Assembly (NCBI GenBank): GCA_050012755.1
Contig: JBEKGO010000002.1
Coordinates: forward strand, 96,735 to 160,734
DNA: 64,000 nt
Reading direction: 5' to 3'
Source: Candidatus Bathyarchaeia archaeon
GTDB taxonomy: Archaea; Thermoproteota; Bathyarchaeia; Bathyarchaeales; Bathycorpusculaceae
Shown here: positions 29,754 through 34,744 of the stretch, piece after piece
Layout: each line of letters opens with the position of its first letter
How positions within the stretch are numbered: position 1 is the stretch's first letter
Program-made: the position numbers and the translations under genes
The notes under the pieces: model-generated
What the model was told of the DNA's origin: nothing
Databases searched by the model: none
The model's input: the letters and a program-made list of their open reading frames with translations, nothing else

Positions 29754-30557
29754 TCATTGGATGTTCTTTGCTTTTGGGCCCTTCAATTCCAACAGAGTTT
29801 CCAAAGTTTTATGGCATTTACTGCATTGTAACATGGAATTTCCACAGGCGGAACAGAACAACTCCCCTTTCTGAAGACGCTCCAAAAGCTCCAGCAAATC
29901 TGCTTTATTCTCCAAATCCCGAGCTGTCTCCTCTTTTGCTATTGGCGCCTCCATCACATCTGTTTTTGGCTGCTCACCCGAAACAATCTCGCTGTAAACG
30001 TGAGTTATGCTGGTTTTGCCATCTCGAAGTTTCTGCTTGTCATCTTCGCTTGCTTTTTCCAGTATTTTTTTGCCTCGCTCAAAAGTGCGTGTTGAAACAC
30101 CGGCTTTTTTGGCGACTACTTCGGTTGCTTTTGCCTTAAATTCGGGCTCAGCGTCTTCTGGCGCTAATCCTAACTGTAGGTTTCGTCCATTCTTTCCGCC
30201 CTTAGACTGCCGTTGCTTTGCCAGGGCCTTCTCGATCTCAAGCAGCGGTACGGCCAACTCTACAAGCTGAAAATTGTTCAGGTGACGACGTCTAAGGTTA
30301 GTTTCTATTACAAATTTTTTCTCTAAGAGTTTATCGTCAAACTTTCGGACTTCAAAATCCGGTTCAATACCCAGTTCAGTACATGCACGGTACCTATGAT
30401 GCCCATCTAAAACTTCCATGTCCTCGTTCACTATTATGGCATAATGCTGTCCTTCCGCTTGTATGGATGCTTTTAGCTCGGCGAATTCTTCTTCAGACAT
30501 TTTAGGCAGCAATTTTTCGTATTCTGGGTTAATGCGTAGGCTCATGGCAGTCGCCAT
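29754..30557 (-). CDS. ParB/Srx N-terminal domain protein with HTH and C-terminal Cys4 motif
   Basis: VLDGHHRYRAC, ETNLRRRHL, VAKKAGVSTRTF HTH, CSAC-x6-CSKC. Confidence 0.85.
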   Translation of the reverse strand: MATAMSLRINPEYEKLLPKMSEEEFAELKASIQAEGQHYAIIVNEDMEVLDGHHRYRACTELGIEPDFEVRKFDDKLLEKKFVIETNLRRRHLNNFQLVELAVPLLEIEKALAKQRQSKGGKNGRNLQLGLAPEDAEPEFKAKATEVVAKKAGVSTRTFERGKKILEKASEDDKQKLRDGKTSITHVYSEIVSGEQPKTDVMEAPIAKEETARDLENKADLLELLERLQKGELFCSACGNSMLQCSKCHKTLETLLELKGPKAKNIQ

Positions 30558-30831
30558 TTGTGGATTTACCTTTTGGCTGATTTATTATTTAAGTTAAAGG
30601 GTAAAGCCTGCCACAGGTGAGAGAGTCGACTTTTTAGCTGAAAGATTACTTGGAAAAGAGAAGAGGAAATCAATTTAGCCATGTAATTAGCCAGCAAATT
30701 GGGAGACAAGCGCTCAGAAAACAAGTGAGTTAAGGCTAAGAGACTATAATGTTGGCTCCACGAAGCAATAACATACTCTTTTATTTTTTGTTGAGATTTG
30801 TGTATATGCGCAGTGACGACCTAAGCAGTTC

Positions 30832-30931
30832 GTTTGGCGAATCAATAGTTAACAAAAATGTGACCTTCTCTCTCCTCGATTCTCCTAGATTTTTTAGATG
30901 TCGCATGGTTAACTGGACTGATTCGCCGAAC
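30832..30931 (+). ncRNA. Candidate structured RNA / long imperfect inverted repeat
   Basis: Three nested stems: GTTTGGCGAATCA/TGATTCGCCGAAC, AGTTAAC/GTTAACT and ATGTGAC/GTCGCAT. The non-Watson-Crick positions within the stems are G.U on the + strand. Confidence 0.45.
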
Positions 30932-31181
30932 AATACTTTTCGTTAATTAAGCAACCTAAAGCCATTTTAAGGAAATATGTAACATTTTTTTTCAACCTCT
31001 GGAAGGAACTAAAAAAACGAAATACACGGGACATGTAGCTGGACTACGCAAGTTATATTAAATAGCATGCACCTAAATTTTATCAAACTAATAAGATAAT
31101 TAAAATCTCATTATTGCGAGATAAACTCGCTATATGCGATTTAATATAATTAAATAATTTACAAATAGGAAGTGCATATTT

Positions 31182-32360
31182 ACGGGAACATCCCAAACAT
31201 TTACGATAAAGTACGTTATCCACGCGAAATTTGAAATTGAAGGCGTAGTTGAAAAACCTGATGTTATAGGCGCAGTTTTTGGTCAAACAGAAGGGCTTTT
31301 TGGACCTGAACTTGATCTTAGAGAACTCCAAAAAACAGGCCGCATCGGAAGAATCGAAATTGATTTACATTCCAAAAACGACAAGACCTCGGGTTTAATA
31401 ACTATTCCAACAAGTTTGGATCGAGTTTCGACAGCTCTTATTGCAGCAAGCATCGAAAGCATTAACCGTGTCGGTCCGTGCTCAGCAAAAGTCGGAATAG
31501 ACAGAATCGAAGATATTCGAGAAGCACGTAGAAAAGTCATTATTGACCGAGCTAAAGAAATCCTTCACAAATGGACTATAGAGTCAATGCCAAGCGTCGA
31601 TGACGTTTATAAAGAAATCTCTGAAACTATGAAAGTTGGCAAAGTGGAAAAGTATGGTCCAGAAGATTTGCCTGCTGGTCCAGGGTTAGATGCTGCTAAA
31701 GAAATTTTTGTTGTTGAAGGACGCGCAGATATCATCAATTTAATGCGTTGCGGAATTTTCAATACCGTTGCCCTTGAAGGCGCCAAAGTTCCAGAGTCAA
31801 TAAAGAAGTTAACCAAAGAAAAAATAGCCACTGCCCTACTGGATGGCGACCGAGGCGGCGATTTAATACTTAAAGAGCTAATCCAAGTTACAAACGTCAA
31901 ATTTGTCGGCCGCGCCCCGAGAGGAAAAGAAATCGAAGAATGCAACTGCAAAGAAATCGCTGAAGCCATAGAAAATAAACTACCAATAACAGAAGCCGCA
32001 GCCCCACCACCTAAACCCGCCAAAAAACCTGAACCGCCAGCACCTCACCACATTAAAGTTGAAGTCCCAGAGCCTGTAGGTCAAGCGGCAAAAGCATTAC
32101 AAGGCACACTTGAAGCAGTTTTGCTGAACGATAAATTTGAATTTGTTGAGCGGTTACCTGTAAGCCAATTAGCTGAGAAACTTCAGCAAGTAACTGGCGT
32201 TGACACAGTAGTTTTCGACGGCATCATCACCCAGAGAATCGTTGACATTGCAGCTGACAAAAACATCAGACGCATCGTTGCATCGCGAATTTCAGAAGCA
32301 GTGAAGCCAGCATTAAACGTAGAATTGGCAACTTTCCAAGATGCCATACCTCAAGCCTAA
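31182..32360 (+). CDS. dnaG: Archaeal DnaG (TOPRIM primase-like / exosome subunit), probable non-canonical start
   Basis: Conserved N-terminus TIKYVIHAKFEIEGVVEKPDVIGAVFGQTEGL lies in frame 78 codons upstream of the track's start; TOPRIM motifs VEGRAD and DGDRGG. Confidence 0.92.
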   Translation, partial: TGTSQTFTIKYVIHAKFEIEGVVEKPDVIGAVFGQTEGLFGPELDLRELQKTGRIGRIEIDLHSKNDKTSGLITIPTSLDRVSTALIAASIESINRVGPCSAKVGIDRIEDIREARRKVIIDRAKEILHKWTIESMPSVDDVYKEISETMKVGKVEKYGPEDLPAGPGLDAAKEIFVVEGRADIINLMRCGIFNTVALEGAKVPESIKKLTKEKIATALLDGDRGGDLILKELIQVTNVKFVGRAPRGKEIEECNCKEIAEAIENKLPITEAAAPPPKPAKKPEPPAPHHIKVEVPEPVGQAAKALQGTLEAVLLNDKFEFVERLPVSQLAEKLQQVTGVDTVVFDGIITQRIVDIAADKNIRRIVASRISEAVKPALNVELATFQDAIPQA

Positions 32361-34744
32361 ACATAATCCATTAAGCTTCTGATTTCTTCAGTTTCTTTTG
32401 CTTCCTTTTTGATCAACTCTTTTTCTGTCACATTGAAGAATCCAAGAATTCTAGCGGCAGCAGGAACTATCTGGTTGGTGATGTAGTAATCGACATCGAC
32501 TTCATCGTATTTTGCGAAAACGTAGGGTTTCACGCGACTGTAAAAACGTCCTTGACCCCCAAGTATGACAAAGCCTACCTTGTCGCCTGCTGTTAGACGC
32601 CAGCCTTTTTCTTTAAGCATCTTTGCAGCTTCAACATGGGGAGCTCTAATGGCGTACTGTTCAGGGGCTTTAGTTAGCGTTTTCCAAATTATGAGGTCAT
32701 GAAACGGAACTTTTCTTTGCCTTAGCTCTGCTATTACTTTGTGAACGTATGCTGTTGCATTTTCAGGGGATTGTTCCTTTAGAATTATTTCAAGAACGTG
32801 TTCTTGCACTTTTTTTGCAACTTCAGCCCAATCTCCACGGATAACTTCCAGTCCAACGATGTCTAAACTACCGTCCAGCCGCAAGCCTGCATAACGTTTT
32901 TTGGCTTCTGTGAAGAAAATGCGTTTGTAAACTTCACCAACTTCTACCTCTAAACCTAAATCTTCGCCGATTTTCCCTTTAAGTTCAAGAAGCTTTTTTT
33001 CGTCATTTGTCAAGAAGAGGCTGTCTGTGTCACCGTAAATAATTGTTAAGCCTTTATTTTCGGCTAAGTGGGTAGCGCTTAATATCGTGTGTCGGCCCCA
33101 CGCGGATGCTGCTTCTGCGACTGGTTTAATGTACCATCTTGCGCCAACCCAGCCAGCGTAGCCGTAAGCGGCGTTTGTAATGATTTTTACTGCCTTTTGT
33201 CTTGCATCCAAAATGCTGTACTCAACTGTGCTGGGGCTTAACCTTTTCATTTGCAAGCGTATTTTGCTTCTAACCTCTATCAGGTAGGTTAATGCTTCTT
33301 TGTAGAAACCAGGTGGTGCCTTGCGGAATCGATGCTTGACTTCTGGCGCTTCATAAACTCCTGCTGGTGGTTCAGGCTCCTCTGGTGCAACGTAGGTGTC
33401 TGGGGAGAGATTGTATCTTATCATGATATTAGGATACATTGATTTGAAATCTAAAACGGCTACATTATCATGCAATCCCGGTTTTGGACTAAGCACTAAC
33501 CCCCCAGCGTAAGGGCGATAAGGCTGCTCTATACGTCTAGGTATGAGCTCGCCGATTTTGCTGGTTTGCTTAATCAAAAACCACTCAACCCTAAATCCTA
33601 CGGCGGCAGTCATCACATGGTCCAATGGTAAACTGACTAAGTTTGAAAGTTGCATTGCGAAATCAAGCAGCAAAGTAGCGGATTGGTGGATTTTTCGAGC
33701 GTTGTTTAAGCTGAACTCTTTGAGGGCTTCTCTTTTTTGCGGTTGATCCCAGTAATCTGGAAATTCAACATCTTCAATTTCCGTGTTTGACTGGTTTTTC
33801 ATTACGCCTAAATAGTAAGCCAAGTTGGAAAGGGTTCTAATTTTCACTTCGGGAAAAACATCCATAAAATCGGCGAGATCAACGTTTGCTATGCCTGTAA
33901 ATGAGACGTGACCGTAAATGCTGGTATGCGGTTCTTTTTTGCTTCGGTCGACGTCAAAGGTTCTCTGGAGACGGTGGCTTCGCTTTATGAGGTAATCCCA
34001 ATCTTGCGCGTTAGCCCCAAAACCAACAATGACGTCAGGATCAAACAGGCAAACGTAATCAATGAATTCTTGAAGAATAGGATTGTCGTTCTTGTCGTCA
34101 CCCGCGGTAAACTGCTTTTCTTTTCCATCGCTTGCAACGGTAGAAATTATTACTACTGGATTTCTGTCTGGTTTGGGCGAGCCCTCCCGACTGTAACTTA
34201 TCATTGAGAAACTGATTGTTTTAAGCGGGGGTTTATCGACGCAATCAAGCTGTTTGGGAATGGATTTCGCAACATAAACTTTGTCAACTCTTACGTTAGA
34301 TTTCCTTTCTTCTTCCTCAACCTCTGCTTCGTGCCAAGCGCACGGAGCCACATCGTTATCAATTAGGTATCGCATTGCAACGCGAATGTCGTCTTCGAGG
34401 CATTCTTTTATTCCTTCGAAGCTTCGAAGCTCCTTTGCAAGCTTGACTGTTTCAGTTGCAACCTTGCAGCAGATTTTTATTGCTTTCACGGGCTTGCCGA
34501 AGAACTTGCGCTCAACAGCTTCCGCTTTCACGATTGAAGATGGGTAAGCGTTCATGATTTCAGATGCAGTATGCAATACGTCACATTCGTCTTTGACCAC
34601 AACGTAAAAGTAAGCATTAACATTTCTTTCAATAATTAACACTCGGTCTCCGCTTTTGTCAATTCCCCAGAGCCACAACTCAACAGATGTACCATCAATT
34701 TTGGGATTAATGTCTAGAAGCCAAAAAGACACTTTCACAGACAA
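32357..34744 (-). CDS. polB: Family B DNA polymerase (PolB3-like), proofreading motifs degenerate
   Basis: DFKSMYP, KIITNAAYGY, YGDTDS and KKRYAG are intact. Confidence 0.95.
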   Translation of the reverse strand: MSVKVSFWLLDINPKIDGTSVELWLWGIDKSGDRVLIIERNVNAYFYVVVKDECDVLHTASEIMNAYPSSIVKAEAVERKFFGKPVKAIKICCKVATETVKLAKELRSFEGIKECLEDDIRVAMRYLIDNDVAPCAWHEAEVEEEERKSNVRVDKVYVAKSIPKQLDCVDKPPLKTISFSMISYSREGSPKPDRNPVVIISTVASDGKEKQFTAGDDKNDNPILQEFIDYVCLFDPDVIVGFGANAQDWDYLIKRSHRLQRTFDVDRSKKEPHTSIYGHVSFTGIANVDLADFMDVFPEVKIRTLSNLAYYLGVMKNQSNTEIEDVEFPDYWDQPQKREALKEFSLNNARKIHQSATLLLDFAMQLSNLVSLPLDHVMTAAVGFRVEWFLIKQTSKIGELIPRRIEQPYRPYAGGLVLSPKPGLHDNVAVLDFKSMYPNIMIRYNLSPDTYVAPEEPEPPAGVYEAPEVKHRFRKAPPGFYKEALTYLIEVRSKIRLQMKRLSPSTVEYSILDARQKAVKIITNAAYGYAGWVGARWYIKPVAEAASAWGRHTILSATHLAENKGLTIIYGDTDSLFLTNDEKKLLELKGKIGEDLGLEVEVGEVYKRIFFTEAKKRYAGLRLDGSLDIVGLEVIRGDWAEVAKKVQEHVLEIILKEQSPENATAYVHKVIAELRQRKVPFHDLIIWKTLTKAPEQYAIRAPHVEAAKMLKEKGWRLTAGDKVGFVILGGQGRFYSRVKPYVFAKYDEVDVDYYITNQIVPAAARILGFFNVTEKELIKKEAKETEEIRSLMDYV

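Follow-up and report, generated by a model that had tools for sequence, protein, structure and literature searches.

An ACG codon conserved across a bathyarchaeal family as the probable start of dnaG, with signs of a wider start-codon set in the lineage

The gene for archaeal DnaG considered here lies in a 64,000-nucleotide (nt) stretch of DNA from Candidatus Bathyarchaeia archaeon (Bathycorpusculaceae), contig JBEKGO010000002.1, forward-strand positions 96,735 to 160,734. We refer to this whole stretch as the window and count positions from its first letter. The conserved N-terminus of DnaG is encoded ahead of any in-frame ATG, GTG or TTG, and comparison with relatives gives good support to a start at the ACG codon at 31182. 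The reading that best fits the data, and one that we consider likely, is that the ordinary initiator tRNA initiates at this near-cognate codon and that the ACG has been kept by selection. A start at ACG 31182, with the product MGTSQTFTIKY and a Shine–Dalgarno (SD)-like motif 7 nt upstream, was proposed in a preliminary description of the window, and the comparative evidence laid out below strongly supports it. The host is described as a peat archaeon; its whole genome comprises 2.41 Mb in 65 contigs.

The dnaG reading frame

The dnaG frame is open from the TAA at 31155 to 32360. The first ATG, GTG or TTG in this frame is the TTG at 31416, which is codon 79 when counted from ACG 31182; as the preliminary description had it, there is none between TAA 31155 and the conserved domain. 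The features around the start are the following:

31155..31157, + strand: in-frame stop codon TAA, closing the dnaG frame on its 5′ side
31168..31174, + strand: SD motif GGAAGTG, identical to GGAGGTG at 6/7 positions
31172..31174, + strand: GTG within the SD motif, out of frame; in frame only with a 6-nt spacer
31175..31181, + strand: spacer CATATTT, 7 nt, containing ATA 31176; its length varies by 1 nt between loci
31182..31184, + strand: ACG, the proposed initiation codon, supported by DNA contigs, by conservation in orthologues and by ATG or TTG at the site in sister lineages
31182..32360, + strand: dnaG coding sequence, 392 codons plus stop, with an NF003108 match and a Toprim domain
31182..31415, + strand: the 78 N-terminal codons that are dropped under ATG/GTG/TTG-only calling, 91–97% identical across the genus
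31218..31220, + strand: ATC, the start implied by the public 380-residue protein, which loses 12 amino acids
31416..31418, + strand: TTG, the first canonical in-frame start, yielding a 314-residue open reading frame (ORF)

The product was identified as archaeal DnaG by an equivalog-level match to NCBIfam model NF003108 (462.9 bits against a cut-off of 300, E = 1.2e-138). Profile positions 1–265 could be aligned, with position 1 falling on the K of KYVIHA at 31209, and the N-terminal domain is present. The central Toprim domain was matched by both PF13662 and PF01751 above their gathering scores, at residues 182–248 of a translation counted from 31158. The conserved N-terminus is encoded from approximately 31182, and the protein is 82–95% identical across the genus, in which the frame is open throughout. 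The N-terminal domain of Sulfolobus DnaG is reported to bind RNA (PMC4227792).

The absence of canonical starts from the first 78 codons is by itself unremarkable. Such codons make up 2.9% of the remainder of dnaG, and a gap of this length has P ≈ 0.10. The case can be made because the conserved N-terminal domain of DnaG is encoded 5′ of the first canonical start.

Conservation of the proposed start position

ACG followed by GGA was found at the aligned position in 22/22 loci of the same genus, including locus L029, which has a two-codon insertion after the ACG. In the other genera of the family, the codon is ACG in 57/60 loci and ATG in 3/60, and all 80 loci (80/80) from public records titled Candidatus Bathyarchaeota, Bathyarchaeia or Bathycorpusculum carry ACG. 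The alignment of dnaG 5′ ends, which the preliminary description had called for, thus shows the codon to be conserved, and the outcome that it had named as counting against the proposal, that relatives would all use standard starts, did not materialize.

In other families of the class, 36/40 loci have a canonical in-frame start 8–12 codons before the KY motif; the ACG of the window lies 9 codons before it. The remaining four consist of three loci with ACG, all in one other genus, and one locus with CTG. Sister lineages carry ATG or TTG at the position equivalent to the ACG, and in loci L020, L023, L025, L026, L236, L237, L243 and L247 an ATG sits exactly at the site, followed by codons for Gly-Ser/Thr-Ser-Gln. 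At locus L245 another near-cognate codon was seen at the start position, where most orthologues have ACG, ATG or TTG.

Across the ACG-bearing loci of the family (78/78), the third base of this codon never changes. The threonine codons 6 and 8 occur in three or four synonymous forms, with a third-base information content of 0.5–0.95 bits. By this comparison the ACG is conserved beyond what the amino acid calls for, as a nucleotide signal rather than as a threonine codon. Changes in codons 2–13 are mostly synonymous, and the sequence 3′ of the ACG is evidently coding. Residues 2–8 (G-S/T-S-Q-T-F-T) are conserved as protein and follow directly upon the methionine in the ATG-bearing lineages.

The frame is not kept upstream of the ACG, since the distance between the SD motif and the ACG changes in length, one base has been deleted upstream of the ACG in locus L005, and the ATG-bearing genera represented by L031 and L084 read CTTAC-ATG-GGT where others read CTT-ACG-GGT, with the upstream frame shifted. 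The upstream in-frame stop of the relatives is found anywhere from −15 to −108 nt.

Ribosome-binding site and competing codons

The 3′ end of the 16S rRNA in the host genome is GGATCACCTCCT, in which the anti-SD sequence is present, and the expected SD sequence is therefore GGAGGTG. A motif of this type, matching at 6/7 positions or more, was found in 72/78 ACG-bearing family loci. The spacer between this motif and the ACG measures 7 nt in 61 of the 78 loci, 6 nt in 16 and 5 nt in one, which places the ACG at 6–7 nt from a ribosome-binding signal in 77/78. Because its length differs by 1 nt between loci, the spacer is non-coding. The GTG at 31172 was considered as a shared start or as the mark of a frameshift and was rejected, as it is part of the SD motif and is in frame in just 16/78 loci.

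Translation might instead begin at another non-canonical codon near the ACG, namely ATA 31176 (the alternative offered in the preliminary description), ATA 31206 or ATC 31218. The NCBI table 11 start list includes ATA and ATC and does not include ACG, and an ORF listing made with the table 11 starts picks ATA 31176. Public proteins begin with MLTG… (codon −2), with MKYVVHA (ATA, codon 9) or with MHAKF (codon 13), and the NF003108 profile opens at the K of KYVIHA. We nevertheless consider such a start unlikely. None of the three codons has an SD motif at a working distance or is conserved as a start-like codon. Codon −2 (ATA 31176), only 1 nt after the SD motif in the window and 0–1 nt after it among relatives, reads ATA, ACA, ACG, TCG, GCA or ACT in those relatives. 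Codon 9 (ATA 31206) is GTA in 11/57 genera and GCT, ACA or GCA in other families. Codon 13 (ATC 31218) is GTA, ATA, ATC or GTG in relatives and lies inside the conserved KYVIHA block. A start at either of the downstream codons would also leave out residues 2–8, with their conservation as protein and their place behind the methionine of the ATG-bearing lineages. Conservation and spacing thus led us to set all three codons aside in favor of the ACG.

The genomic sequence at the ACG

Contigs from three DNA runs, belonging to three studies, span 31182–31184. Among the best-supported differences between contigs and window that were listed (26 less supported ones were left out), there is no alternative letter between 30928 and 31220 and no insertion or deletion. 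Contig records 1, 9 and 10 are identical to the window at the ACG site, and record 2, which represents a relative, has 10 differences, all of them explained by the 10 listed at 31220–31280. The ACG is also present on contigs of co-occurring relatives. The preliminary description had advised checking the reads at 31183, and the C is borne out by the contigs of the three DNA runs, none of which has a different letter at that position. From the one RNA run (X20), contigs start only at 31221, downstream of the ACG.

The ACG could in principle be an artefact, that is, a sequencing or assembly error masking an ATG, a 1-nt insertion or deletion masking an in-frame GTG 31172, or a sign of a decaying gene. 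The window is indeed a metagenome-type assembly, and a change of one nucleotide would bring GTG 31172 into frame. Against this, the three DNA runs concur, and the 1-nt change that the preliminary description had envisaged for GTG 31172 is not among the differences listed. The same ACG occurs in more than 150 independently assembled loci, the frame is kept open at the level of protein identity given above, and the 7-nt spacer that leaves GTG 31172 out of frame is the majority state (61/78 loci). Sequencing error, insertion and deletion were ruled out by the DNA contigs together with the independent assemblies, and an artefact of any of these kinds is hardly credible.

Contig depth in the three DNA runs peaks at 31178–31231, at 429, 169 and 40 compared to about 6 in the flanks, and the contigs of the DNA runs break at 31167–31188. 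The assemblies fragment at the 5′ end of dnaG because the first dozen codons are near-identical among co-occurring relatives.

Other genes with probable near-cognate starts

The 2.41-Mb genome was screened for an SD motif, the codon following it, at least 100 open codons downstream and no nearby canonical start. True spacing was taken as 5–8 nt, and spacings of 0–3, 12–15 and 18–21 nt served as controls. The counts were:

ATG: 97 at 5–8 nt; controls 11, 12 and 8
TTG: 52 at 5–8 nt; controls 9, 6 and 4
GTG: 14 at 5–8 nt; controls 4, 0 and 2
ACG: 6 at 5–8 nt; controls 1, 0 and 0
ATA: 6 at 5–8 nt; controls 1, 2 and 2

At the true spacing ACC was found 3 times, and ACA, ACT, GCG, CCG and TCG were not found. 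Among the SD-led genes of the genome, TTG starts are far more common than GTG starts (52 vs. 14, with 97 for ATG).

Besides dnaG, the ACG candidates are hflX, a tubulin-like gene, an oppD-like ATPase gene, nuoL and a gene for a tandem Lrp-type regulator. In all five, the family profile opens at most 10 residues from the ACG, and use of the first canonical start would remove 22–51 residues. Orthologues back three of them (hflX, nuoL and the tubulin-like gene), with canonical start codons found at the equivalent position. In hflX, ACG was found in 27/30 loci across the order, the remaining three having ATT, ATA or ACC. A stop codon stands immediately 5′ of the ACG in 3 hflX loci, and in other orders the site is occupied by ATG or TTG. 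The host nuoL reads TAA-ACG, and its orthologues (n = 7) have ATG at the site in four cases, ATG one codon upstream in one, TTG in one and CTG in one. Of the 13 genomes compared for the tubulin-like gene, 10 have ACG at the site, two have it one codon upstream and one has TTG. Among the orthologues of nuoL, the tubulin-like gene and dnaG, ACG thus alternates with ATG, TTG and CTG at one and the same site.

A different near-cognate codon is found in the gene for ribosomal protein uS11 (G000 contig C35, minus strand, start 15171; L333:171-572:-), where a CTG lies 7 nt after GGAGGCG. The first canonical start of uS11 is codon 43, and the family profile needs the N-terminus. Within the genus (24 loci) the start is CTG in 10 and TTG in 14; in 6 loci of other families, it is ATG in 5 and TTG in 1.

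Taken together, these comparisons indicate that the ACG start is not specific to dnaG but belongs to a broadening of the start-codon set that extends across the lineage.

ATA codons that lie at SD distance and are candidates for starts were seen in a nuoI-like gene (G000 C25:8633) and in genes for a signal-anchor protein (C34:2835) and a 107-residue protein (C52:3531). Their first canonical starts are 36–81 codons downstream. The nuoI-like profile opens before the first canonical start; no NCBIfam model matched the proteins from C34:2835 and C52:3531. Single relatives also have other near-cognate codons (ATT, ATA or CTG) at start sites of hflX (L116, L121 and L125) and nuoL (L154).

Proposed decoding of the ACG and its retention

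The host genome encodes one ordinary initiator tRNA with anticodon CAU, which has the A1:U72 pair and the GGG/CCC anticodon stem. A dedicated initiator tRNA reading ACG was not found by ARAGORN in the whole genome (48 tRNAs, with introns allowed). The sole tRNA with anticodon CGU is an ordinary threonine elongator, and a special ACG-reading initiator was therefore dismissed.

We propose that the SD motif in the short dnaG leader pairs with the 3′ end of the 16S rRNA and so brings the ACG, 6–7 nt downstream, into the P site. There it would be read by the ordinary initiator Met-tRNA in spite of the single mismatch at the middle base, and the DnaG protein would begin Met-Gly-Thr-Ser-Gln. On the same grounds, the working start-codon set of this lineage of Bathyarchaeia would comprise ATG, TTG, GTG, ACG, CTG and ATA. 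The data themselves show where the ACG lies, that it is conserved, that it is equivalent to canonical starts of orthologues and that a special tRNA is absent; decoding of the ACG as methionine, its presumably lower efficiency and the selective reason for its use are what we infer from these patterns.

A single change from C to T would turn the ACG into ATG, and yet the ACG has been kept in dnaG through the family and in hflX through the order; selection therefore seems to favor the ACG itself. Selection would thus have held the codon fixed in these two genes over family-level to order-level divergence, most likely because a weak or condition-dependent start keeps DnaG and HflX scarce. The fixation of ACG would imply selection for a weak or conditional start in a subunit of the RNA exosome and in a ribosome-associated GTPase. 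A weak ACG start probably lowers the expression of dnaG. The preliminary description had likened the dnaG start to those of infC and pcnB, as a translational down-tuning of this gene. As a device specific to dnaG this does not stand, given at least three other ACG genes and the CTG of uS11; the down-tuning as such is retained here as a suggestion from the fixation of the ACG.

Several points weigh against initiation at the ACG as described, or against parts of it. Loci L021, L022 and L024, from outside the family, read GTG-ATG-CTT-ACG, and there the ATG two codons upstream could be the start. The ACG counts in the screen are small and come from one genome. The ACG of the Lrp-type regulator (G000 C5), whose family profile needs the N-terminus, is not retained by its 11 orthologues, which for the most part also have no clear canonical start, and the single orthologue of the oppD-like gene (G000 C13) at E ≤ 1e-110 has ATA at the site. 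The weakness of the start is assumed by analogy with other organisms, and the presence of CTG in a ribosomal protein gene suggests that near-cognate codons are perhaps not very weak in this lineage. Finally, the argument for the ACG start is one of comparative genomics, with RNA contigs that begin at 31221.

It is also conceivable that mRNA editing converts the C at 31183 to U, so that the ribosome meets a normal AUG. DNA alone cannot tell editing from initiation at a near-cognate codon, an editing site at a start would likewise be expected to keep its ACG strictly conserved, and the RNA-run contigs miss 31182–31184. Editing that creates a start by converting ACG to AUG is known from chloroplasts (PMC9845219). 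In the present lineage, editing would have to act on at least four genes whose sequences around the ACG are unrelated, and CTG, ATA and ATT occur at start positions, none of which could be made into AUG by a C-to-U change. Editing is very unlikely because so many unrelated sites would need it and these other codons would be left unexplained; a single mechanism of relaxed initiation covers ACG, CTG, ATA and ATT alike. We know of no C-to-U editing of mRNA in archaea.

A last alternative, which we think slightly less probable even than editing, is that the ACG works only by translational coupling or by re-initiation after an upstream ORF. In nuoL, the ACG follows immediately upon the stop codon of the preceding gene (TAA-ACG), and in the oppD-like gene the upstream stop overlaps it by one base (GTAACG). 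Conversely, about 600 nt upstream of dnaG are without a long ORF on the same strand, dnaG has its own conserved SD motif, and the one small frame that overlaps its start, opening at GTG 31172, closes 60 nt beyond the ACG. The hflX gene likewise has its own GGAGG at 8–10 nt.

Initiation at the ACG by the ordinary initiator tRNA thus remains our preferred reading, and it can be carried further. Bathyarchaeia may possess a eukaryote-like relaxed initiation in which ACG, CUG and AUA are regular, SD-positioned starts throughout the proteome, with particular housekeeping genes, namely dnaG (in the family, across at least 60 genera) and hflX (in the order), locked on ACG as a conserved regulatory device whose output would vary with the state of aIF1, aIF2 or the initiator tRNA. 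We offer this extension tentatively, with somewhat less than even confidence. If it is true, prokaryotes would here have their first natural set of ACG-initiated genes with deep conservation.

Consequences for annotation

The public protein of this dnaG has 380 residues and begins MHAKFEIEG. Across the DnaG family, public proteins begin MHAKF, MKYVVHA, MLTGTSQ, MTFTGTSQ, MIRKCIFTGTSQ, MRETLALC… or VIGAVFGQ. None of the public annotations examined uses the ACG; their starts fall at five or more different codons, all of which are probably wrong for this lineage, because gene callers and NCBI table 11 disallow ACG. The preliminary description had predicted a truncation by 78 residues. This applies to a caller restricted to ATG, GTG and TTG, which would cut off the conserved RNA-binding N-terminal domain, whereas the public protein loses no more than its first 12 residues.

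The same problem would affect the starts of hflX, nuoL and uS11, and probably those of more genes, and the errors would be inherited by protein families, structure models and metabolic reconstructions. The class concerned consists of archaea that are abundant in peat and sediments and are known only from metagenomes.

Upstream region and neighboring gene

Two further features were noted upstream of dnaG:

31103..31142, no strand assigned: hairpin or palindrome, with outer arms AAATC/GATTT and inner stem GCGAG/CTCGC
31140..31158, + strand: AT-rich, TATA-like stretch TTTAATATAATTAAATAAT, a possible promoter by its A+T content

The hairpin, located 40–80 nt upstream of the dnaG start, recurs in single-sequence folds of 68 family loci with a median fold energy of −12.7 kcal/mol. 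Its inner stem varies between genera while pairing is kept (GAGAG/CTCTC, GCGG/CCGC and GTAGG/CCTAC). RNAalifold gave no consensus structure for it on a MAFFT alignment, so that the agreement is among the single-sequence folds alone, and no Rfam match was found in 30500–31300. It could be a DNA operator beside the promoter or an RNA element. The A+T content is 0.83–0.94 at −40 to −21 across 21 loci of the genus, and TTTAATATAATTAAATAAT is a possible promoter. Contigs in two DNA runs skip 64 nt at window positions 31094–31159, which removes the hairpin and the AT-rich box. These contigs probably stem from a related population, an assignment made weak by a shorter flank of just 30 nt.

On the − strand, an ORF for 795 amino acids (window 32357–34744) runs towards dnaG and shares 4 nt with the end of that gene. 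The translated sequence includes YGDTDS, which we take to be a motif of family-B DNA polymerases.

Comparison with known systems

The open-access literature searched yielded no description of ACG starts in archaea or Bathyarchaeia. In bacteria, non-AUG starts are known to limit expression, as in E. coli infC and pcnB, both of which start with AUU. The dnaG start resembles these in being a conserved codon other than AUG, GUG or UUG that follows an SD motif in a housekeeping gene and is thought to limit or regulate expression. It differs in its codon, an ACG mismatched at the middle base, and in its host, an archaeon with initiation factors of eukaryotic type. The product of infC itself discriminates the codon, a property for which DnaG has no counterpart, and we know of no role of DnaG in the selection of start codons. 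Several unrelated genes share the ACG here, and its presence in hflX, nuoL and the tubulin-like gene argues against a gene-specific loop of the infC type.

ACG starts are known from eukaryotes and their viruses. Initiation at ACG is said to have been described in mammalian cells by Peabody in 1987 and, reportedly, for the Sendai virus P/C gene by Curran and Kolakofsky in 1988; VP2 of adeno-associated virus is also initiated at ACG. The codon is the same as in dnaG, and presumably it is likewise read by the initiator tRNA with one mismatch. The eukaryotic and viral codons, however, are found by scanning, in a Kozak-type context, and often give a minor isoform, whereas the ACG of dnaG is positioned by an SD motif and is the sole start of an essential-looking gene. 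The archaeal initiation factors are homologous to the eukaryotic ones, aIF1 and aIF2 corresponding to eIF1 and eIF2. A natural set of near-cognate starts, conserved in a lineage related to the eukaryote stem, would provide a comparative handle on the evolution of start-codon stringency.

Compared to the ordinary GTG and TTG starts of archaea, the ACG behaves similarly in swapping with ATG, TTG and CTG at orthologous sites, and differs in lying outside the table 11 list and the public annotations examined. The editing of start codons from ACG to AUG in plant organelles (PMC9845219) has in common with dnaG a genomic ACG at a conserved start position; it needs a C-to-U machinery, and editing would leave the CTG, ATA and ATT starts of the present lineage unexplained. 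An ACG-started sfGFP in E. coli is reported to carry N-terminal methionine plus some threonine (Hecht et al., bioRxiv 10.1101/063800). An SD-led ACG can thus initiate in a prokaryote with an N-terminal methionine, as is proposed here for dnaG. That reporter was engineered and its output was low, whereas the ACG of dnaG is natural and appears to have been fixed by selection across a family.

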